Shown here: positions 3,159-60,902 of the stretch, piece after piece
How positions within the stretch are numbered: the stretch's first letter is position 1
Layout: every line of letters starts with the position of its first letter
Assembly: GCF_045037415.1 (NCBI RefSeq)
Contig: NZ_CP173440.1
Source: Escherichia coli
Lineage (GTDB): Bacteria; Pseudomonadota; Gammaproteobacteria; Enterobacterales; Enterobacteriaceae
DNA length: 64,000 nt
Strand: one strand, 5' to 3'
Position numbers and translations under genes: made by a program
Notes under the pieces: generated by a model
What the model was told of the DNA's origin: nothing
Database searches by the model: none
The model's input: the letters and a program-made list of their open reading frames with translations, nothing else

Positions 3159-4485
3159 TCTATGGTCACTCCCGTTTTTGCAACACCGATTTTGACGATA
3201 AATTGGCTTGCTTGAATCTATCCGGCGTCTGAATGGGATTTTATTCCCGCGCCTCGATGAGTTCCGCGCCTGATGAACCTCCAGAAAATATACGGCTTCA
3301 ATGAGCCTTTCCGTTTTACAGGTTCCTCAACAGGCCGGTGGGCCGTTAGTATCATCAATATCAGTATTCGCAAAACCAGATCAGTGATTCTTTAAACCGG
3401 TGTATTTCTGCCGTTATGCTACATAAGTTTGCTGTCGTGCCGTTAGGGCCCAGGCTATTCTGGCCAGCTTGTTTGCCAGAGCACAAGTGACGACAAAGTT
3501 GCTTTTCCTACACAGTAGATCCCTGACCCAATCGGCCAATTTGCCAGACTGGTGTTCCAGTTTTTGTATGAATACCCTGGCACATTGAACCAACAAAGTT
3601 CGGATCTTTTTGTTACCTCGCTTACTAATTCCCAGCAATGTCGTCCGACCTCCCGTGCTGTACTGTCGGGGTACCAGCCCTGTTGCCGCCGCAAAGTCAC
3701 GACTGCTGGCGTACTGCTTCCCGTCGCCAATCTCAGTTGAAATAGTACTCGCTGTCAGTGTTCCGACGCAGGGAATGCTCAGCAAGCGCTGTCCAATCTC
3801 ATCTTCGTCCAACTTTCGTTTCAACTGGGATTCCAAATCTTTAATCTGCTCAACAAGATAGTGATAATGCTGTTGTAATTTCAGCAATAACTGGCTGAGG
3901 TATAGAGGCAAACTATTGTCCTCAAGAAGGGTACTCAGTCGGCTAATAACGGCAGCTCCTCGTGGAACGCTGATGCCAAATTCCAGCAGAAAAGCATGCA
4001 TCTGATTGGTTGTTTTTACCTTATCCTGAACCAGGGATTCACGGACACGATGCAGCGCACGCATTGCCTGCTGAGATTCAGTTCTGGGCTGTACAAAACG
4101 CATAGACGGACGCGATGCAGCTTCACAAATAGCTTCGGCGTCGACAAAGTCGTTTTTGTTACTTTTAACGAATGGACGGACAAATTGTGGTGATATCAGC
4201 TTAGGAAAATGCCCCAACTCTTCCAACTTGCGTGCCATAAAGTGAGAGCCACCACAGGCTTCCATTGCGATGGTTGTAGCGGGGCATGTCGCCAAAAATT
4301 CGATTAACTTTGGCCGTGTAAATTTTTTACGGTAAACAGCCTTGCCGCGACGATCTTGGCAATGAATATGGAAAGAGTTTTTACCCAGATCGATACCAAT
4401 GAGCGCAATGTTTTCCATGATAGTTCTCCGAATGAAAGCCTATCCTCAGCATAGTACCGGGAAGGAGGGAGTGACCATCTCATTA
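3159..4485 (-). mobile_element. IS5075/IS4321-type element (IS110 family), complete, 1327 bp, inserted in a 38-bp IR
   Basis: Exactly 1327 bp between the two IR halves; contains a 334-aa IS110-family transposase. Confidence 0.85.
3414..4418 (-). CDS. IS110-family transposase (IS5075/IS4321)
   Basis: 334-aa product MENIALIGIDLGKNSFHIHCQDRRGKAVYRKKFTRPKLIEFL... Confidence 0.9.
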   Translation of the reverse strand: MENIALIGIDLGKNSFHIHCQDRRGKAVYRKKFTRPKLIEFLATCPATTIAMEACGGSHFMARKLEELGHFPKLISPQFVRPFVKSNKNDFVDAEAICEAASRPSMRFVQPRTESQQAMRALHRVRESLVQDKVKTTNQMHAFLLEFGISVPRGAAVISRLSTLLEDNSLPLYLSQLLLKLQQHYHYLVEQIKDLESQLKRKLDEDEIGQRLLSIPCVGTLTASTISTEIGDGKQYASSRDFAAATGLVPRQYSTGGRTTLLGISKRGNKKIRTLLVQCARVFIQKLEHQSGKLADWVRDLLCRKSNFVVTCALANKLARIAWALTARQQTYVA

Positions 4486-49666: not shown

Positions 49667-50149
49667 TTACCCTTCTCCCTTCCTGGATGCCTTAACCTGG
49701 GTCTGATAGTTGCGCTTTACCCGCTCAATTTCCGCCAGAGTTGCCGCCCAGTGCAGCCCTGCGGCGTGACGATATCTGGTTGCCATTTTTTCAACGGCCT
49801 CCGGAGTGCTGTCATCGCTGCGGTGCTGCCGTCCCTTCACCCCGAAAATTTCCACTATAAGCCACTGGCTACCGGTTCTGCCGAACAAGGCCTGACACAG
49901 CCGCCTCACGGCAAGCGGGGTCAGATCCGGGTCGGGATCATACGCGATGGTGGCAAAAATAAAACGCAGCATCTCAGAGGTTTTGTAGCGTTTTACCGCT
50001 GCCGCCAGCCGGGCAGCTCTTTGCGGCGCTTCCCAGCGGTCGTCGCTGTAACCTGCCACTTCAGAGAGATAGTCCTTCTCGAGTTGTTTAGCCGTGTAGC
50101 AACGTCCCCCCAAAAACATCCGCATAGCTTCTTTCGTTTCAGCTCTCAC
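49667..50149 (-). CDS. Hypothetical protein bracketed by the two palindromes
   Basis: 160-aa ORF MRAETKEAMRMFLGGRCYTAKQLEKDYLSEVAGYSDDRWEAPQRAARLAAAVKRYK...; no family recognised. Confidence 0.45.
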   Translation of the reverse strand: MRAETKEAMRMFLGGRCYTAKQLEKDYLSEVAGYSDDRWEAPQRAARLAAAVKRYKTSEMLRFIFATIAYDPDPDLTPLAVRRLCQALFGRTGSQWLIVEIFGVKGRQHRSDDSTPEAVEKMATRYRHAAGLHWAATLAEIERVKRNYQTQVKASRKGEG

Positions 50150-50192: not shown

Positions 50193-51095
50193 TTAAGTAT
50201 CCGGTTCAACAAAAATCAGGAAACCGATCTGATTTAGTGCATGTGGCTGTCTCTTTTGGATTATCGCTTTTGCGTTATGGTATACAGGTTACCCCTCCCC
50301 CTCTTTTCCCGCTGGTCTACTGTAGTCGACACAAAAGACAGGAACTGCGGTATGTCCTGATAATATTGTTTGAGTTTTAATCACGAAGCAGAGGGTATCG
50401 CATACAGTAGACACAACGCAGCCAGAATAACGCTCGATGTAAAATTTAGATCGTTGTCGCCTGCAGTAGACATTCCTGGTATCGACTCTGGTGCATCCAA
50501 TACTGACCCGTTCCCGGATCATGGCAGAGCATCCAGTAGACACGGTATGGAAGGACGTCAGTCCTCACCTTTCCGTCTGTTTTGACTGTGTCGGAGACGA
50601 CGGTTGCGGTTATTGTTGATGCCTTTGGCCGTCAGGTGAATACCTGTCAGTCAGGTAACTCTGTCGTTACATTTGATGCCCGAAAATCATAATTACCACA
50701 TATTAATCCGGGCATTCCGGAAAATTGTACCTGCCTGAAGAGTATCAAACGATACCTGTCTCCCCTCCTCTGAATTATCTGCTCAGTCGAGAACCTTGAC
50801 GATCGGGTGATTCAGTTTCGGCAAATGGCAGCATGATAATGTCAGCCAACAGCGTGCTGGTGAATTTATTGTCGGGCCAGACGAATTCTGTTTGTCACTG
50901 CATACTGCATGCCGGGCAGAGGAGTGAACAACGATCGAACTGAAACAGTTGCAGCGTCGTATGGAGAAAGAATGGGTTGGTTTCAGGCGGTGCTTCGGTC
51001 GGTTTCAAACAGTGTCTGACCGACTTCTGGTAAGTTTCTCCCTTGCTGTCTGGTGATTCTGTCTTGCCCGGATTGTTGACTATTGATGATGGTGT

Positions 51096-51104
51096 TTATC
51101 CACA
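51096..51104. promoter_or_regulatory. DnaA box (TTATCCACA) followed by an AT-rich tract, upstream of the repA iterons
   Basis: Consensus 9-mer read directly; AT-rich 51110-51180. Confidence 0.55.
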
Positions 51105-51214
51105 GCTTAGAATAATAACAGAAGCTTAACTAAAGCTAAGAAAAGGACAAAAAAGACTAATAAAAGAATAACGTTTTAGTGAGGCCTTGAACTACGGGGC
51201 TCTCAGGCCATCTC

Positions 51215-51346
51215 TGTCAACGCTGGCGGGTATTCTATCATTGCTGGCGGGTGAACCATCATCGCCAGAGGGTATACCATCAACGCTAACGGGGCAATTA
51301 TCATCGCCAGAGGGTAGATTTTATCAACGCCAGCGGGTAATCTGGT
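51215..51346. repeat. Origin iterons (about six ~22-bp repeats with core CAACGCTGGCGGGTA) immediately upstream of repA
   Basis: tcaacgctggcgggtattcta / tcattgctggcgggtgaacca / tcatcgccagagggtataccat / ... / tcaacgccagcgggtaatctgg. Confidence 0.65.
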
Positions 51347-51375
51347 AAAAATATCCACATCCGGGATTTTATAAA

Positions 51376-52260
51376 ATGGCCAATGATAACAATCAGTTAG
51401 CGCTAATTATCACTGAGCAAGATAAAAGTTCTGGTGAAGTTATACATTTGGTTCCTAACTCAAAACAGAGTATTCAACCTAAATCGCTACTGCGATTGGG
51501 GGTCTTTGTTCCGACAGTCAAGGATGGCAGCGACCCTATGGCACGAGGTCATGTCATCGATGCAACGACTGAGTTGTGTCGTCTTTCTTCTATCGCTGGA
51601 GAGGGGTACGAAAAGATTAGTATTTTTGGGCCCAGGCTTGATATGGATACGGATTTCAAAGTCTGGCTAGGGATCGTGGACACACTCGCCAACACGTTTC
51701 TTGAGCCTGATGGGACTGTTAGGGTCAATTTTATTGATTTTGCTTTCAGTTGTGGGCTTGCTACAAAACGAGTTGATTCAAGGTTAAGGAAACGTTTTAG
51801 CGACTCACTGACACGGATCCAGCACACCCATTTCCAGTTCATCAAAAACTCAACAGTAGAAGGGAAAAAAGTAAAGATCGACATGAGCCTGGTGTCTACT
51901 TCTTACTATGATGAGGGAACCGATGAGGTCATTATCAGGCCAAATCCGGATTTGAATACTCTGTATCGTGTCGACGGGAAGACCCGACTTTACTTAAAAA
52001 TATTGAAGACCCTGTCTCGAAAAGAATCAGCCCAGGCACTGTATCTTTATCTAGTTGAATTACCTGACCATTTTTATCGCATTGGATTCGACCGCTTAAG
52101 AGAACGGTTGCAGCTGACTTCACACAAAGGTGCTCAGAATGCGACGATAAAAAAAGCGTTAGAGCAACTGGATGAAGCTGGTTTTTTAAAATACACGATA
52201 GAAAAAAATCGTGGGGATTATGTACTGGTCATTCTTAGTCGAAACAAAAAAGTTACCTGA
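51376..52260 (+). CDS. repA: Iteron-binding replication initiator RepA (P1 RepA / RepFIB family)
   Basis: 294-aa product with LLRLGVFVPT, GPRLDMDTDFKVWLG, RKESAQALYLY and KKALEQLDEAGFL blocks shared with P1/RepFIB RepA. Confidence 0.8.
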   Translation: MANDNNQLALIITEQDKSSGEVIHLVPNSKQSIQPKSLLRLGVFVPTVKDGSDPMARGHVIDATTELCRLSSIAGEGYEKISIFGPRLDMDTDFKVWLGIVDTLANTFLEPDGTVRVNFIDFAFSCGLATKRVDSRLRKRFSDSLTRIQHTHFQFIKNSTVEGKKVKIDMSLVSTSYYDEGTDEVIIRPNPDLNTLYRVDGKTRLYLKILKTLSRKESAQALYLYLVELPDHFYRIGFDRLRERLQLTSHKGAQNATIKKALEQLDEAGFLKYTIEKNRGDYVLVILSRNKKVT

Positions 52261-52399
52261 GTTATTTAGGTAAAATCAGTCATTTACATTACACACTGAC
52301 TCCAGAGTGTAGTTTCAAGAGTTCGGGTTTTTAGCTAACGCAGCAAACCGCACCAGGTAATTACCCTCCAGGGATGAGGCTTTACACCAGCAGCACCCT

Positions 52400-53520
52400 G
52401 TTTACCCGCCAGCGTTGAGGATGACCACCAGCAGCGACCACGCTTACCCGTCAGCGTTGAGGATGGTCACTGGTATCGCCCCTGTTTACCCGCCAGCGTT
52501 GACGGTGACCACCGACAGCGGCCACGCTTACCCGCCAGCGTTGAGGATGACTACCGGCAGCGGTCCCGTTTACCCGCCAGCGTTGAGGATGACTACCGGC
52601 AGCGGTCCCGTTTACCCGCCAGCGTTGAGGATAGCCACCGTCAGCGGCCACGTTTACCCGCCAGCGTTGAGGATAGCCACCGTCAGCGGCCCCGTTTGCC
52701 CGCCAGCGTTGAGGATGAGCACCGGCAGCGGCCACGTTTACCCGCCAGCGTTGAGGATAGCCACCGTCAGCGGCCACGCTTACCCGCCAGCGTTGAGGAT
52801 AGCTACCGTCAGCGGCCACGCTTACCCGCCAGCGTTGAGGATAGCCACCGTCAGCGGCCACGTTTACCCGCCAGCGTTGAGGATAGCCACCTTCAGCGGC
52901 CACGTTTACCCGCCAGCGTTGAGGATGAGCACCGTCAGCAGCCCCGCTTACCCGCCAGCGTTGAGGATAGCCACCGTCAGCGGCCCCGTTTGCCCGCCAG
53001 CGTTGAGGATGAGCACCTGCAGCGGCCCCGCTTACCCGCCAGCGTTGAGGATGAGCACCGTCAGCAGCCCCGCTTACCCGCCAACGTTGAGGATAAGCAC
53101 CGTCAGCGCCCCCGTTTGCCCGCCAGCGTTGAGGATGAGCACCGGTAGCGGATCCGTTCACCCGCCAGCGTTGAGGATAAGCACCGTCAGCGGTCACGTT
53201 TACCCGCCAGCGTTGAGGATAAGCACCGTCAGCGGTCACGTTTACCCGCCAGCGTTGAGGATGAGCGCCGTCAGTGGATCCGTTTACCCGCCAGCGTTGA
53301 GGATAAGCACCGTCAGCGGTCACGTTTAACCGCCAGCGTTGAGGATGAGCGCCGTCAGTGGATCCGTTTACCCGCCAGCGTTGAGGATAAGCACCGTCAG
53401 CGGTCACGTTTAACCGCCAGCGTTGAGGATGAGCACCGGCAGCGGCCCTGTTTGCCCGCCAGCGTTGAGGATGAGCACCGGTAGCGGATCCGTTTACCCG
53501 CCAGCGTTGAGAATGATTCC
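52400..53520. repeat. Tandem array of ~26 imperfect 42-bp repeats (TTACCCGCCAGCGTTGAGGAT + variable 21 bp); core is the inverse of the origin iteron
   Basis: Periodicity and unit read directly; CCCGCCAGCGTTGA is the reverse complement of the upstream iteron core TCAACGCTGGCGGG. Confidence 0.85.
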
Positions 53521-53702
53521 CCTCCACCGACCCCGGTTACACGCCAGCTTTGACACTACCAGCGACTACAGTCGACATTAAAATCGCCGTGACCTGCTGC
53601 AGCGCGATATACGCCCGGCTGGCATCAAAAGAATTTTAACCAAACAGCACACATCCAGCGGTACAGGAGGCCAGGTTTAACCCGGGGCAGAAACAGATTG
53701 AT

Positions 53703-54770
53703 CTATAGCGACTTGTTAGGATCATTTAGCAAAAACCAATCCCGAAAGGCCTGCTTGCTATCGAAGGTGGGAAGGTTATGTATGGACAAGTTCCAGTTAA
53801 TGATTTTCACTATAAAAGACAAAAATTCAATTTCAGCCTCATTCAGTACACCCTCTCCTTTTTTCCGTATATAGAAGTCATACCATCGTTCGTAGGCGGC
53901 AACATTGATAGATTCAGATGCTTCCAGAAGCCGGGGGATATAATAAACCAGTTCTTCAAAGGCAATACTGCCTTGAGGGATATCAGAACGGCTCAGGCGA
54001 CAAAGAAGGTTAATCGTGGCTCGAAGGTGATGCCACTGCTGTGCCGGGGAGGATGGGAGGGCGTTCATGCTTATCGGAAGTTCATGAGGAATTAAAGCAA
54101 GGATCTGATTTCCACTGGTAGACAGCTCACGCCGGTACTGGTGTAGAGTATGGTGTTTAACCTTCTTCATCATAGGATGGTAGATCCATTTTTTCGCTTC
54201 CTCAGAAACGAAAAGTAACTTTTCTATCGCATCCATCATCTTTATGCCTTCTCCACTCTCACGATATGGAGCGATGATACTTTCAATCCGAACGGCATCG
54301 ATCTCCACCAGCGCCAGCTGGTCTGTTTGCGCTAACAGGTCTGGATTGGGCTGGATATCCTCCGACGTATCATTAATAAATATCCCGATTGTCGTATCGT
54401 TACATATCCCTGTGAGGTCAGCATTAAGGCCACAAACAATCCCACCACCAGCGAGATTTTTGAGGTTAACTATCCCTTTCTCCTTACCCTGCAGAAGATG
54501 AGGGAGAGCAAGGTATTTTTTTTCCTGTATTTTCACCTTTATGTATTTTTTTATATGTTGTAGTGTGAGCTCACTACAAACCCCTTTTACTTCTGTGCTG
54601 TGGCTAAAATGCCATTTTTTATTTTGACCCTGTTTGGCAATCAGGGAGGTCCCACAGATGAGGCAGATACAGTTACACGAAAGCCCATTTTCAACGCTGG
54701 CGATATCAACAATTTTATTTGAATCCGTATCAAATCCAAACGGGATCCATTTTTGTGCATTACGTCGCAT
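53703..54770 (-). CDS. Hypothetical protein with CoiA-like N-terminal zinc-finger/nuclease-related motif
   Basis: 355-aa ORF; N-terminus LSCNCICLICGTSLIAKQGQNKKWHFSHS resembles the CoiA family CxxC...HFxH signature. Confidence 0.45.
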   Translation of the reverse strand: MRRNAQKWIPFGFDTDSNKIVDIASVENGLSCNCICLICGTSLIAKQGQNKKWHFSHSTEVKGVCSELTLQHIKKYIKVKIQEKKYLALPHLLQGKEKGIVNLKNLAGGGIVCGLNADLTGICNDTTIGIFINDTSEDIQPNPDLLAQTDQLALVEIDAVRIESIIAPYRESGEGIKMMDAIEKLLFVSEEAKKWIYHPMMKKVKHHTLHQYRRELSTSGNQILALIPHELPISMNALPSSPAQQWHHLRATINLLCRLSRSDIPQGSIAFEELVYYIPRLLEASESINVAAYERWYDFYIRKKGEGVLNEAEIEFLSFIVKIINWNLSIHNLPTFDSKQAFRDWFLLNDPNKSL

Positions 54771-54855: not shown

Positions 54856-55110
54856 TCATATCTCATCGGGGATGAGATGCCACATGGAAGCAGGTATTTT
54901 GTCATAGTTTTTTTTCATGTAGATCTCAGCCCTGCGGTGATCATAAGCTCCGTTCAGGCTGGTTATCTTATTCATATCCCCACCTTCATCATTTAATTTA
55001 TCCAGGATACGCTCAAACACTCGGTCAAGGGTTTCAGTCGTACTGCACTTTCTGAACTTCAGGAGATAGGTTTCTCTCAGGCTACTGTGCGCATTTGGGC
55101 TTTTCAACAA
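54856..55110 (-). CDS. Small hypothetical protein
   Basis: 84-aa ORF, no recognisable family. Confidence 0.35.
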   Translation of the reverse strand: MLKSPNAHSSLRETYLLKFRKCSTTETLDRVFERILDKLNDEGGDMNKITSLNGAYDHRRAEIYMKKNYDKIPASMWHLIPDEI

Positions 55111-55259
55111 CGACGCTCCGGGGCATGTTCAAAAACACTGGCTATTTTCGAAAACAGTAAACGAAGTTCCACGCACAGGCAAGAGAAGCCATTTGATTAA
55201 TTCACGTTCTGCCTGGATTTGAAAAAAAACAATGTTACTATACTGGCTATAAAAACAGT

Positions 55260-57190
55260 GTGCGCCGGGGAACCGGTTAGAGATCAAGGGGTGAAAGTCC
55301 CCGACCATTGAAGGACCAGCAATCCACAAGGTCCCCGAGTCATGCGTTGCATACCGCGAGGTATGGGGCGAAGCGTTGACAGGGGTGTTGACAGGCCAGC
55401 CATTGAGCCACGAAATGTATATTAAATTACCGGGTGCCGACGTTGTACTGTTAACGGAAGGCAACATCATAGGGTGCGATACTGCGAGTGCCACATGGAC
55501 CCGGCGGGGTCTGAGACCCTGGCATGTCAATACGATCTCTACGCGGGAACCGGGAGATCTCCCCTCTGACCATCTGCCAGTGTCGGAGATGGCCCGCACC
55601 GGGAAGACGAGGAGTCATAGCCGGTGATGTACGGAGAGGAGAAGTCGGACTCGCTCATAGTAGCGGCGAAGCAGGCGAACAACCCGAAAGGAGCGGAGTC
55701 AGTGGAGCGAAGGAGCGGGGCCAAGGGGAACGCGGAACAGCCACACATGCGCCGGACACAGAGCCGGGAAAGCATGTCACAGAGGCTGTCACGCGTGCGG
55801 GAAGCTGCGAAGCAGCGGAAGAAAGAACGGTTTACAGCATTGTTCCACCTGCTGACAGTCGAAGCACTGGAAGCCGCATTCCTCTCCCTGAGCAGGAAAG
55901 CGGCCGCCGGAGTGGATGGCATCAGGTGGATGGACTACGCCGGAAACATGAAGAACAACATAACAGATCTGCACCGGAGGCTACATCAGGGCAGCTACAG
56001 GGCGCAGCCCGGCAGGCGTCACTACATCCCAAAAGCGGATGGAAAACAACGCCCGCTCGGCATCGCCTCGCTGGAGGACAAGATCGTCCAGTATGCGCTG
56101 GTGAAAATCCTGAACGCAGTCTATGAAAACGACTTTATGGGGTTCTCATACGGGTTCAGACCCGGGCGAAGCCAGCACGATGCACTGGACGCACTGGCCA
56201 CAGGGCTGGTACGCACTAACGTAAACTGGGTACTGGATGCCGACATCAGTCAGTTCTTCGACAGGGTGAGCCACGAATGGCTGATCAGGTTCACAGAGCA
56301 TCGGATCGGCGACCGGAGGGTAATCAGGCTCATACGTAAGTGGCTCACAGCCGGGACGTCGGAGGAGGGTCAATGGCGAGCAACGGAGGAAGGCACCCCA
56401 CAGGGTGCGGTCATCTCACCGCTGCTGGCAAACATATACCTCCACTACGTCTTCGATCTGTGGGCGCATCAGTGGCGACGTCGCTATGCCACAGGCAATG
56501 TGGTAATGGTCAGATACGCCGATGACATCGTCATCGGGTTCGACAAACGATACGATGCCCGGCGCTTCCGTATAGCCATGCAGCGCAAACTGAGGGAGTT
56601 CGGACTCACGGTTCACCCGGAGAAAACCCGTCTGATGGAGTTCGGCCGCTTCGCTGCCGAAAACCGTGCCATCAGGGGAAAAGGCAAACCAGAAACGTTC
56701 AACTTCCTCGGGTTCACGCACATCAGCGGGAAAGATCGCAACGGCAGGTTCATGCTGATACGAAAGACCCGCCGGGATCGGATGACGGCAACTCTGAAAG
56801 CCATCAAAGACGGTCTGCGAAGGCGCTGGCATTACTCAATCCCCGAACAGGGAAAATGGCTCAGGAGAGTGGTTCAGGGATACCTGAACTATCACTCGGT
56901 ACCGGGCAACTTCCCCACCATGCAGAAGTTCAGGACACACGTAACAAACCTCTGGCGCCGGGCGCTCAGGCGCAGGAGCCAGAAGGATGATACGACCTGG
57001 ACGAAAGCAAACAAACTGGCAGCCGCATGGCTACCAAGGGTTCGGGTTCTTCATCCATGGCCTGTGGAGCGGTTCACCGCCAGACACCCGAGGCAGGAGC
57101 CCGGTGCGTAAATCGCGCACGCCGGGATCTGTGCGGGGGGTATCCGGTAACGGGTATCCCTACCGCGACATCAGTGAAAAGACATGAGAT
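55260..57190 (+). mobile_element. Group II intron (starts GTGCGCC) encoding an RT/maturase; 3' end approximate (within ~30 bp)
   Basis: 5' GTGCGCC at 55260; intron-encoded protein with RT domains 0-7 and X; ~80 nt follow the RT stop, as expected for domains V-VI. Confidence 0.7.
55624..57111 (+). CDS. Group II intron-encoded reverse transcriptase/maturase, no endonuclease domain; N-terminal start uncertain
   Basis: AAGVDG, PLGIASLEDKIVQ, SYGFRPGRSQHDAL, DADISQFFDRVSHEWL, PQGAVISPLLANIYL and YADDIVI motifs. Confidence 0.9.
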   Translation: MMYGEEKSDSLIVAAKQANNPKGAESVERRSGAKGNAEQPHMRRTQSRESMSQRLSRVREAAKQRKKERFTALFHLLTVEALEAAFLSLSRKAAAGVDGIRWMDYAGNMKNNITDLHRRLHQGSYRAQPGRRHYIPKADGKQRPLGIASLEDKIVQYALVKILNAVYENDFMGFSYGFRPGRSQHDALDALATGLVRTNVNWVLDADISQFFDRVSHEWLIRFTEHRIGDRRVIRLIRKWLTAGTSEEGQWRATEEGTPQGAVISPLLANIYLHYVFDLWAHQWRRRYATGNVVMVRYADDIVIGFDKRYDARRFRIAMQRKLREFGLTVHPEKTRLMEFGRFAAENRAIRGKGKPETFNFLGFTHISGKDRNGRFMLIRKTRRDRMTATLKAIKDGLRRRWHYSIPEQGKWLRRVVQGYLNYHSVPGNFPTMQKFRTHVTNLWRRALRRRSQKDDTTWTKANKLAAAWLPRVRVLHPWPVERFTARHPRQEPGA

Positions 57191-57196
57191 CTTCCC

Positions 57197-58333
57197 ATGA
57201 CAGATAAAACCAAACTGGTTGCTATCTCACGAACCGATGACATAAGTGCTCTGGATGCACTCAAGCTGTTGCGGTTTCGCCGGTACAATACGGCCAGAAG
57301 TCAGTTAAGGGTCACGAGTGTCTGGTCTGCATGGTGCGCCAGGCACGGTCTGACCCCCTTCCCGGTCACAGCGGTTGATGTCGAGCGCTATATTAATGGG
57401 CTGAATGGATCCGTTAAAATGGCGACTATCTCTCATTTTATTGCATGCCTTTCAAGCGTTAACAGCAGCCTGGGTTTTCCAGACTTCCGCAACGTTCTGA
57501 TAAAAGCACTGGTTCAGGTATGGCGGGCGCGGGAGAATGAGAAAAAAATCGTCACCGGTCAGGCCCTTCCATTTCTTATATCCGATCTCAATATTCTTCG
57601 CCGGTCGCTGCATAAAAGCGACGACCTGAGAGACATACGGGACCTTGCAATGATATGGGTTGGGTTTGAAACCCTGCTGCGTAACGTGGAAATTCGAAGG
57701 ATTAAAACCGGCGACCTGAAATGGCAAAATGACACGTCCTGTTACCTTCTGGATGTCATGCGGACCAAGACAAGCCTTTCAAGTAACCTGACATTTCAGC
57801 TCTCACCACAATGCAGTCAGCATGTCAGACGGTTGATTGAGACGGTGGAATACACCGATACCGAAACCTTCGGGCACCGTTTTCTTTTTCAGCCTGTAAA
57901 CATCCATACGAACCGATATTTCCCGTCCACCAGCAGTAAGCTATCCCGGGGTAAATCCATAGACAGGATGCTGGTCAAAGCAGGATTCAGTGAGGGGTTA
58001 CTGACGCAGTTACAGAATGAATCAAAGGTATCACGGGAAGATGTTGGAATGCTGTCCTCTAATTCACTGAACCAGGCATTTGCACGCCTCTGGGGGATTG
58101 CCGGGAAGGTCAGCGACAGTAACCGACAGTCCGGGCGGTACCGGACATGGACAGGACACAGTGTGCGTGTGGGGGGAGCCATAGAGCTGTTTAAGGCCGG
58201 GTACTCACTGGAAAAGATTACCGAGATGGGGAACTGGTCTGATCCAAAGATGGTCTTCCGTTATATCCGTGGATATCTTGCCAGTGAAAAAGCCATGGTA
58301 AGCTTTATGCGTAATCATCTGGACGACATATAG
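57197..58333 (+). CDS. Cre-like tyrosine site-specific recombinase
   Basis: 378-aa product; C-terminus GHSVRVGGAIELFKAGYSLEKITEMGNWSDPKMVFRYIR parallels the Cre catalytic H-x-x-R...W...Y region. Confidence 0.6.
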   Translation: MTDKTKLVAISRTDDISALDALKLLRFRRYNTARSQLRVTSVWSAWCARHGLTPFPVTAVDVERYINGLNGSVKMATISHFIACLSSVNSSLGFPDFRNVLIKALVQVWRARENEKKIVTGQALPFLISDLNILRRSLHKSDDLRDIRDLAMIWVGFETLLRNVEIRRIKTGDLKWQNDTSCYLLDVMRTKTSLSSNLTFQLSPQCSQHVRRLIETVEYTDTETFGHRFLFQPVNIHTNRYFPSTSSKLSRGKSIDRMLVKAGFSEGLLTQLQNESKVSREDVGMLSSNSLNQAFARLWGIAGKVSDSNRQSGRYRTWTGHSVRVGGAIELFKAGYSLEKITEMGNWSDPKMVFRYIRGYLASEKAMVSFMRNHLDDI

Positions 58334-59191: not shown

Positions 59192-59946
59192 TTTTCCTCC
59201 AGAGGCTTTAATCTTAATTTGACCACGTTAACCAGTTTCATTACTCCCGCCTCATCCGGTACGAAAATGTAACGACATCTCGGCCATGTCGCGTGTGTAA
59301 ATATCTTACCAGCGGTGTTGATATTCAGAGGCATAAGCCTTTCAGTCTTACTCAACGGCATTTTCTCTATCGGGATCAACCCTGACTTAAAACTTTTTAT
59401 CATTAAGTCGAGAGGGGTTTTACAATCTTTATTGCTCATCGTTTCTGTGTAACGGATCATCCCGGCAATCGTTACCTGTATCGTTCCTATATCAGATTCG
59501 AATTTCGGCAGCACCGGCCAGTAAGGAATTTCAAAATCCACACTGGTAAGCGCCTGTTCGTAACCCTGCTCATTTGTTTCTGCAACCGTTTTAAGGCCTG
59601 GAAACCGGGCGTGCATAAATTTGATAATCTTTACCACATTGGGCGTGCTGGCCTGACGCTGATATATCTCTGGCAGCCATGTGGACGTGGTGGCCCATGT
59701 CGTGGTGCATGCATAAGTTTTTTGCTCCATATGCCATAAAATAGAGGTGTCAGCCAGGAAGTGATGAACAGTCAACAGCTCGGCCAGCAGCCGATCTTCA
59801 TCTGGATGTGTTATGGCATTTTTGAAACAGACCTGTACACGAAAACGTTCTTTTGCAGACAGAAAAGTGTTTCCCCTACTGACGGCCACTTTGTATAACC
59901 TCCTGGCCGGATCAGCTTCACAAATCCCGGTTAAAATCCGGCTCAT
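59188..59946 (-). CDS. Hypothetical protein (252 aa), translationally coupled to the upstream gene
   Basis: Start overlaps the stop of 59943-60902 by 4 bp. Confidence 0.45.
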   Translation of the reverse strand: MSRILTGICEADPARRLYKVAVSRGNTFLSAKERFRVQVCFKNAITHPDEDRLLAELLTVHHFLADTSILWHMEQKTYACTTTWATTSTWLPEIYQRQASTPNVVKIIKFMHARFPGLKTVAETNEQGYEQALTSVDFEIPYWPVLPKFESDIGTIQVTIAGMIRYTETMSNKDCKTPLDLMIKSFKSGLIPIEKMPLSKTERLMPLNINTAGKIFTHATWPRCRYIFVPDEAGVMKLVNVVKLRLKPLEEK

Positions 59947-60902
59947 TTTGACTCCCTGATGACTTCCACCAGCCCTATACGGGGCAGGACAGAACGATAT
60001 TTTTCATTAAAATCGCCGCGCTTCTGCCTTTCACCTTTTACGTAATTTTTTAACGGATTAAACCGGCCCGGTTCGCTGAACAAAATTAATGGTAAAGGCG
60101 CGCGAAAGTTGAGTTTGTACGGCCCATGAACATCATCTGGATCTTCAGGACTGGTGTACCGGATATTGACGTTAACAGCCGGAAAGTTACTTTCCCGGAT
60201 AAGCCGAAATTTTCTCAAATTTTCATCGTCATGACTCACTTCATCATTGAGCAACGACAGCATCATGATTTCTTCGGTTCGTTCCTGTTTCAGCCGTTTA
60301 ACATCCTGTTTTGTCAGACTGATATCCGGCTGGAGCTCAGTTATCTCCCTGCGTAAGCGGTCGATAACCGTTTCCAGCCGGGTAAATTTATGAATGACAG
60401 GGATTTGCCAGGTGAACCCCAGGGAGCGAATTTGCTCAGTAACGATCCGGATATTACGGGACACCTGTAAAGTCACCAGCCACGGGTAAACCTGGTGCAG
60501 AATTTCTGACCGGGAGTCCTGGTAATGAGTGATAGCTTTTACAGCATCAGCAAATTTGTCACGAAGCCGGTTGATTTCACCCACCAGCGACATCACCTGA
60601 TCATGATTGTTTCTGACCACAACGAACCCGGGGTATTTTCGGGTGATTTTGGTTGAATAATGCTCATCCCTGACATGGACTTTATCAACCCGCTGCTGCC
60701 GGTAAATATCCACCAGGGTGTCGACGTCGGGTACCGAATGAGTCACATTGATTTCCTGTGGCGGATTCAACTCCTCAACACTACGGGGCTCCGGGAGCGA
60801 GGCAAGGTAAGATGAGCCGATATCGCTGTGACGGAGTAAACTGTGCAGCTCACCGAGTTTGCGTAGTTGCTCTTCGTTGTAATGGGCAAAGTCAGTATTC
60901 AT
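59943..60902 (-). CDS. Hypothetical protein with weak Tus-like (replication terminus-binding) similarity
   Basis: 319-aa product; C-terminal blocks APLPLILFSE and YRSVLPRIGLVEV resemble Tus PTPLIALIN and LRLIIPRLHLY; from memory, not searched. Confidence 0.4.
   Translation of the reverse strand: MNTDFAHYNEEQLRKLGELHSLLRHSDIGSSYLASLPEPRSVEELNPPQEINVTHSVPDVDTLVDIYRQQRVDKVHVRDEHYSTKITRKYPGFVVVRNNHDQVMSLVGEINRLRDKFADAVKAITHYQDSRSEILHQVYPWLVTLQVSRNIRIVTEQIRSLGFTWQIPVIHKFTRLETVIDRLRREITELQPDISLTKQDVKRLKQERTEEIMMLSLLNDEVSHDDENLRKFRLIRESNFPAVNVNIRYTSPEDPDDVHGPYKLNFRAPLPLILFSEPGRFNPLKNYVKGERQKRGDFNEKYRSVLPRIGLVEVIRESK

Follow-up and report, generated by a model that had tools for sequence, protein, structure and literature searches.

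A tandem array of 42-bp iteron units downstream of repB in an Escherichia coli plasmid replicon, a probable control locus of the incA/incC type

Introduction

The incA locus of P1 and the incC locus of F are negative-control clusters of iterons, which act by titration and handcuffing. The clusters contain nine iteron sites in P1 incA and five in F incC, and the sites are irregularly spaced. Partition centromeres are also composed of repeated units: sopC of F consists of 12 units of 43 bp, and centromere units bear an inverted repeat for ParB/SopB and adjoin parAB. References for these control loci are Chattoraj 2000 (Mol Microbiol 37:467) and Paulsson & Chattoraj 2006, which PMC8957301 and PMC9602619 cite.

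Several larger repeat blocks have been described in other plasmids. The "iteron-1" region of IncHI1B contains 10 repeats of 34 nt and occurs in one to three block copies (PMC9602619), and the 37-bp "Iterons I" of IncN are present in five copies (PMC6288184). In addition, an R46-type IncN iteron was found as 30.6 repeats without its rep gene, that is, as an orphan array (PMC4048246). The parC of IncFIB plasmids is made up of 43-bp tandem repeats, with 8 to 23 copies (PMC8957301).

In the present study, a 64,000-nucleotide stretch of Escherichia coli DNA (assembly GCF_045037415.1, contig NZ_CP173440.1), hereafter called the window, was analyzed with regard to a 42-bp tandem array downstream of its rep gene. 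Like P1 incA and F incC, the array is a second cluster of origin iterons situated just downstream of rep and outside the origin, and the initiator is of the Rep_3/winged-helix type. It differs from these two loci in several respects: its 27 consensus sites are repeated in tandem at a strict 42-bp period, the spacer between them varies, the number of sites is highly polymorphic, and its function is proposed computationally. The nearest Rep relatives have homologous Rep proteins (60% and 41–43% identity) and their own iteron is likewise repeated downstream, but as about 7–15 irregular sites, often in both orientations, with no 42-bp tandem array. The IncHI1B and IncN blocks resemble the present array in being large, tandem and length-polymorphic iteron arrays by a rep gene or left from one, and the IncN orphan array has a parallel in the arrays that stand here beside a repB gene lacking its WH2 domain; however, neither block is related to the present array in iteron sequence, unit length or Rep protein. 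The sopC and parC centromeres share tandem units of 42–43 bp and a copy number variable between plasmids, whereas the 42-bp units here carry a Rep iteron and have neither an inverted repeat nor nearby par genes. A full-text literature search, with the original pNDM-MAR and pLVPK papers outside its coverage, found no description of the 42-bp array. The array appears to be new, or at least undescribed, among the known incA/incC-type loci, an earlier description being possible.

Results and Discussion

Structure of the 42-bp Array

The coordinates of the array and its neighbours are collected in Table 1. In the TRF analysis the array had a period of 42, 26.6 copies, 87% matches and a score of 1499, and no other tandem array with a score of at least 80 occurred in the 64-kb window. 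The core was counted as the 15-mer ACCCGCCAGCGTTGA, which is the reverse complement of the origin iteron, with at most one mismatch. Across the whole window, 27 sites were obtained on the + strand, from 52404 to 53496 and spaced by exactly 42 bp, and a single site on the − strand, at 51217 in the origin. The chance expectation for such sites was 0.01, and none of 100 shuffles reached 28. All 27 array cores lie 144–1236 bp beyond the rep stop, and every one is inverted relative to the origin iterons. The results were in agreement with the preliminary description of this DNA, in which about 26 imperfect 42-bp units had been seen downstream of the rep gene. Its further statement, that the units carry the inverted core of the origin iterons, held for the array side, with 27 sites at no more than one mismatch, but has to be narrowed on the origin side: the exact core occurs in one upstream iteron only, the other five differ from it by at least two bases, and four of the six are within three mismatches.

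Table 1. Features of the origin, the repB gene, the array and the downstream region (positions in the window).
Feature	Position	Strand	Details
Perfect DnaA box TTATCCACA, outer edge of origin	51096..51104	+	
AT-rich stretch, ~68–70% A+T	51105..51190	.	40-nt windows
Six origin iterons, 21–22 bp spacing	51214..51345	+	consensus yATCAaCGCtgGcGGGTa
DnaA-box-like ATATCCACA, between iterons and repB start	51351..51359	+	1 mismatch
repB, 294 aa, Rep_3-type dual winged-helix initiator	51376..52260	+	ATG at 51376
Degenerate proximal unit	52359..52399	+	core 52363–52377, 3 mismatches; PWM 14.2 bits
42-bp tandem array, 26.6 units	52400..53516	+	TRF, PWM, 15-mer count
304-aa ORF, judged spurious	52415..53329	+	TTG start, no SD
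358-aa ORF, judged spurious	52451..53527	−	GTG start, no SD
Degenerate distal iteron	53535..53556	+	core 53539–53553, 2 mismatches; PWM 8.3 bits
355-aa protein	53703–54770	−	weak CoiA_N match only (E 2e-5)
Hha/YmoA-family gene	54856–55110	−	
Tyrosine recombinase	57197–58333	+	

Each array unit consists of an inverted consensus iteron with no or one mismatch and a variable spacer of 19–23 bp. Among the 26 full units, positions 7–23 (CCGCCAGCGTTGAGGAT) were almost invariant and positions 24–42 held most of the substitutions, in which a period-3 pattern was not clear. This conservation pattern is that of a protein-binding site and a spacer, and is unlike that of codons. The sites were also scored with a weight matrix (PWM) derived from the six origin iterons only. 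Read on the − strand, the 27 array sites had 13.6–28 bits, compared with a 99.9th percentile of 3.0 bits for the window. Moreover, the iteron consensus fits most array sites better than it fits five of the six origin iterons. The array is flanked by a degenerate unit on the proximal side and by a degenerate iteron on the distal side, the latter 43 bp past the last full array site.

A model with two sites per unit, about 53 sites in total, was considered and rejected; the second half of the units scored at most 3.6 bits with the origin-iteron PWM, and in four units only. A direct repeat inside the unit, at offsets of 20 and 22, is weak (16/42 matches), and it might be speculated that the unit descended from a pair of 21-bp iterons. 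The spacer variant GGATAAG, present in five units at 53088–53390 (− strand), makes TTATCCTCA, which differs from a DnaA box at a single position, and this match is probably a coincidental by-product of the variant. An Rfam search of 50500–54200 with a permissive E-value gave matches at chance level only (E 0.47 and 0.63).

The Origin and the RepB Initiator

The layout of the origin is canonical, with a DnaA box, an AT-rich stretch, six iterons, a DnaA-like box and the rep start following one another (Table 1). The AT-rich stretch is presumed to be the origin unwinding region. The cores of the six iterons start at 51217, 51238, 51259, 51280, 51302 and 51324, and a promoter-like match is located within the iterons at 51214–51241. 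The scan for promoters and terminators gave counts at the shuffled expectation (for promoters, 2 found against 2.1 expected) and was uninformative on autoregulation.

The product of the rep gene was 100% identical to WP_004186900.1, which is annotated in RefSeq as "RepB family plasmid replication initiator protein". The name repA used in the preliminary description was replaced by repB, since the public records assign the protein to the RepB family. Against Pfam, RepB matched Rep3_N (WH1) with an E-value of 2e-8 and Rep3_C weakly (E 0.027), and it matched PHROG 775 with an E-value of 4e-88. The AlphaFold model of RepB had a mean pLDDT of 70.6 and was matched by Foldseek to RctB domains 2–3 (E 6e-8) and to DNA-bound RepE (2z9o, E 3e-6). 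Sequence and profile searches of the PDB gave no match for RepB, and NCBIfam contained no family for RepB, for its 355-aa neighbour or for a 160-aa neighbour. Together, these matches identify RepB as a dual winged-helix initiator of the iteron type. A Rep_3 fold was found together with iterons, an AT-rich region and DnaA boxes directly upstream of rep, the features of an iteron-controlled theta replicon.

A further group of repeats was observed between the origin and the 160-aa ORF, which is conserved (49667–50149, −). The cluster extends over 50315–50543 and contains three direct copies of TCGC-N3-CAGTAGACA at 50398, 50457 and 50527, with spacings of 59 and 70 bp, and an inverted copy at 50315–50332. 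The 10-mer of the cluster was marginally over chance in the window (6 against 2.1 expected). The copies may represent an operator or some other cluster of binding sites.

Plasmid Context

Over a 25-kb stretch, the window aligned at 99.5% identity and 92% coverage with plasmids of K. pneumoniae that MOB-suite types as IncFIB/IncHI1B, such as pKP97_virNDM5 from an ST147 NDM-5 K. pneumoniae strain. The coverage by the closest plasmid (locus L007) was 92% because a group II intron of the window is absent from it. The intron encodes a reverse transcriptase/maturase of 495 aa (55624–57111, +; flanks at about 55130–57200; ltrA in locus L001) and its insertion separates the hha-like gene from that of the tyrosine recombinase. 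The order of the 355-aa protein, the Hha/YmoA-family gene and the tyrosine recombinase downstream of the array was kept in both RepB lineages with a 42-bp array. The counterpart of 59943–60902 (−), about 6–7 kb past the array, is annotated in the closest plasmid as "DNA replication terminus site-binding protein", a Tus homologue. In the closest plasmid, the annotation of about 12 kb to each side of the array contains no ParA or ParB gene. Besides this replicon, the relatives examined bear another one, of type IncHI1B or IncU, and the share of the present replicon in copy control is therefore uncertain.

Comparison across Rep Lineages

The array was compared with the corresponding loci of related replicons. 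In the sister lineage, represented by loci L005, L006, L008 and L017 from K. variicola, Raoultella and E. cloacae, RepB showed 87% amino acid identity and about 75% identity in DNA. The array of this lineage has the same 42-bp period, with 18 to about 29 units, and the core is kept (TTTACCCGCCAGCGaTGA), while the spacer is different. In the lineage with RepB of 60% amino acid identity (L009 and L011; plasmids pKP14812-MCR-1 and pTB211, L011 being E. coli pTB211), the origin has a distinct iteron, TCCACTATACCGGGT. Downstream of rep, 9–15 irregularly spaced copies of this same iteron were found, most of those in L009 being inverted and those in L011 pointing both ways. In pTB211 the downstream cluster (L011 4486–4902) forms a higher-order repeat of 110 bp in 3.7 copies, with a divergent iteron pair per unit, an arrangement suggesting that a locus of this kind became tandemised independently. 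At 41–43% Rep identity, about 13 downstream sites were found in Y. pestis pMT1 and about 7 in IncFIB(K). The 42-bp array was absent from pMT1, IncFIB(K) and E. coli RepFIB, and the motif chosen for RepFIB was uninformative. The origin iterons of the nearest Rep relatives are spaced by 21 bp.

These comparisons indicate that a downstream cluster of the replicon's own iterons is ancestral in this Rep family, and that the 42-bp array is an expanded, tandemised form of it. Among the arguments for RepB as the putative ligand of the array, the strongest is that the origin and downstream iterons covary across the Rep lineages.

The assignment to a classical RepFIB or IncFIB(K) replicon was also considered. 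It was rejected, because RepB is only 41–42% identical to the Rep proteins of E. coli RepFIB and IncFIB(K), the iterons differ, and these replicons have no 42-bp array. Although MOB-suite types it as "IncFIB", the replicon is by its sequence distinct from RepFIB/IncFIB(K) and belongs to the same superfamily.

Variation of Array Length

The two unique flanks of the array, 1024 bp each, were used as the BLAST query, and the number of units was obtained from the span between them. In PLSDB, 1279 plasmid records matched the flanks, and 819 of them had both. The plasmids with an intact repB (a spread sample, n = 20) contained 5.6–25.6 units, with 13 of the 20 at 21.6–25.6, and the virulence-type plasmids (n = 14) contained 11.3–29.7 units. 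TRF on individual loci gave 27.8, 12.6, 11.8, 2.4 and 6.8 units, and locus L015 had 29 cores. The array with 6.8 units belongs to L016, a natural plasmid with an intact repB, the typed relatives of which bear a second replicon (IncHI1B or IncU). Thus the comparison across related plasmids that the preliminary description had called for revealed a highly polymorphic array, ranging from 2.4 to about 30 units, or about 12-fold, in near-identical replicons. With 26.6 units, the array of the window is near the upper end yet typical for its replicon family. The claim of an unusually large array is valid with respect to relatives outside the lineage, which have about 7–15 sites, but not inside the family, where many plasmids have 22–26 units and some about 30.

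When unit types were written as letters, the window had the string ABCDEFGHFIJKLMNOPQRSTSUSVQWX and its closest relative (99.5% identical) had ABCDEFGHFIJKLMNOPQRSTSVQWX. The window contains one additional block of 84 bp, "US". Unit U joins the head of V to the tail of T, a hybrid structure that marks the 84-bp duplication as the product of an unequal crossover. The proximal units ABCD were common to the window and to the plasmid with 12.6 units, indicating that units turn over mainly in the interior and the distal part of the array.

In many K. pneumoniae plasmids of the hypervirulence type (L003, at 3277–3861, L004 and L015), repB has an in-frame deletion of 300 bp. The deletion corresponds to 51927–52226 of the window and to residues 185–284, the entire WH2 domain, and the product has 194 aa and WH1 only. 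These plasmids retain the origin iterons and 2.4–30 array units. In L015, units of irregular length (60, 39 and 26 bp) were present.

Coding Potential of the Array

Both ORFs on the array begin with start codons (TTG or GTG) lacking an SD sequence (Table 1), and the array contains no ATG preceded by one, so the absence of start and RBS context recorded in the preliminary description was borne out. The same description held both strands to be open across the array. This was correct for the − ORF, which spans nearly the whole array, but the + ORF covers about 80% of it. The consensus unit is free of stops in three of its six frames, which is sufficient to explain long ORFs on the array. In the PGAP/RefSeq records, one to three "hypothetical protein" CDSs are placed on the array, with strand and extent differing by record (for instance L007 13423–14331, L015 1207–2429 and L017 1030–1884). 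These CDSs are very likely artefacts of the stop-free repeat.

The possibility that the array encodes a repeat protein, which had been kept as a live option, can draw on the long ORFs of both strands (304 aa and 358 aa), on the CDSs that PGAP calls in many records, and on one + frame that varies most at third positions (50, 35 and 23 substitutions, in the order third > first > second). This codon-position bias was rejected as coding evidence, because the frame is open for 150 aa only and the bias comes from about eight variable columns. Furthermore, close relatives do not share the reading frames. Although L005 and L017 encode the same RepB, the − ORF of the window stays open in L017 and is closed (at most 35 aa) in L005, where a 34-bp unit also shifts the + frame; the units of 26, 39 and 60 bp in L015 also speak against a frame maintained over the repeat, as does the disagreement of the annotated CDSs among records. 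Neither a start codon with an RBS nor a frame kept between relatives was found for the array. With such starts and frames, a repeat protein is now very unlikely, and we give it hardly any credence.

Proposed Function and Alternative Explanations

The origin's own iterons are clustered outside the minimal origin and downstream of rep, as in incA and incC. All the computational tests agree with and support a reading in which the units are putative iterons for the initiator, grouped downstream of rep in a cluster of the control type. We consider it likely that the array is a non-coding cluster of RepB iterons, serving as an incA/incC-type locus for the control of copy number and incompatibility, with RepB binding and its effects as predicted components. 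Following the mechanism of P1 incA and F incC, RepB monomers on the array would sequester the initiator (titration), and array-bound RepB would pair with origin-bound RepB, either in cis or between plasmid copies (handcuffing). By blocking initiation, such pairing and titration would keep the copy number of this large plasmid very low, and the array would also serve as a strong incompatibility determinant. With 27 near-consensus sites against six weaker sites in the origin, the array would be a strong brake, as would suit a plasmid larger than 300 kb. Its length changes fast and in whole units, by unequal recombination or slippage. In an analogous case, that of the repA of IncHI1B, another replicon of related virulence plasmids, duplication of the downstream block of 34-nt iterons was reported with a lower copy number, 2.43 vs 1.33 (PMC9602619). 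The large size of the present array is perhaps not strongly selected, because its length ranges about 12-fold and arrays of 11–30 units occur beside a WH2-deleted repB.

The main rival explanation treats the array as a satellite, neutral for the most part, which arose from the ancestral iteron cluster and expands and contracts; RepB may bind to it, but the number of units would drift and be of slight adaptive significance, which implies no size-tuned "very tight" control. The 2.4–30 units in near-identical replicons, the 84-bp block by which very close relatives differ, the 11–30 units beside a RepB without WH2 (one of these arrays being irregular, with units of 60, 39 and 26 bp) and the second replicon on the plasmids are all consistent with drift. 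However, the cores are near-perfect in 27 units although the spacers vary, two diverged lineages both hold strict 42-bp arrays of up to about 25–30 units, and the plasmids with an intact repB cluster at 22–26 units in a small sample. On the whole, we regard a neutral satellite as unlikely. The array might also be a selfish device for incompatibility or exclusion, that is, a high-capacity sink which would strip RepB from incoming plasmids of the same type. This would explain why 11–30 near-consensus sites are found on hypervirulence plasmids that have a WH2-deleted repB and replicate from IncHI1B, and we hold it to be a distinctly unlikely role.

Two further explanations concern functions other than initiation control. 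In unit length and tandem layout the array is similar to the centromeres sopC of F and parC of IncFIB; as a centromere, it would have a ParB-type protein as its ligand in place of RepB. The reported parC copy numbers of 8–23 (PMC8957301) are in line with a centromere, and so is an array of 43 bp in 9.3 copies beside sopAB in the IncFIB(K) plasmid L013, which we read as sopC by analogy; the L013 array is unrelated in sequence to the 42-bp array. A partition centromere is nevertheless very improbable here, since the consensus of the tandem unit has no inverted repeat of at least 6 bp, no ParA/ParB gene is annotated within the 12 kb mentioned above for the closest plasmid, and the conserved block is the origin iteron, which covaries with the origin across the Rep lineages. 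A RepB-coated array could also act mainly as a replication-fork barrier or terminus together with the plasmid Tus homologue. All array sites have one orientation, opposite to that of the origin iterons, and the gene annotated as a terminus site-binding protein is situated about 6–7 kb downstream. The relatives L011 and L012, however, have irregular clusters of mixed orientation, and nothing ties Tus to the array units, so that we attach next to no probability to a fork barrier.

Conclusions

The 42-bp array, a probable RepB iteron cluster of the incA/incC type, represents a familiar kind of element at an unusually large size, and it is common and size-variable in more than 800 sequenced plasmids. 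It is routinely mis-annotated as genes for "hypothetical proteins", and its length is an easy and informative marker in long-read assemblies. In addition, the array is a possible tool for plasmid curing based on incompatibility. The replicon is found on large IncFIB/IncHI1B (MOB-suite) hybrid plasmids and on hypervirulence plasmids of K. pneumoniae, with NDM-type carbapenemase genes and virulence loci. If the array sets the copy number, its fast expansion and contraction would alter the dosage of resistance and virulence genes, and would also influence which plasmids coexist or fuse.
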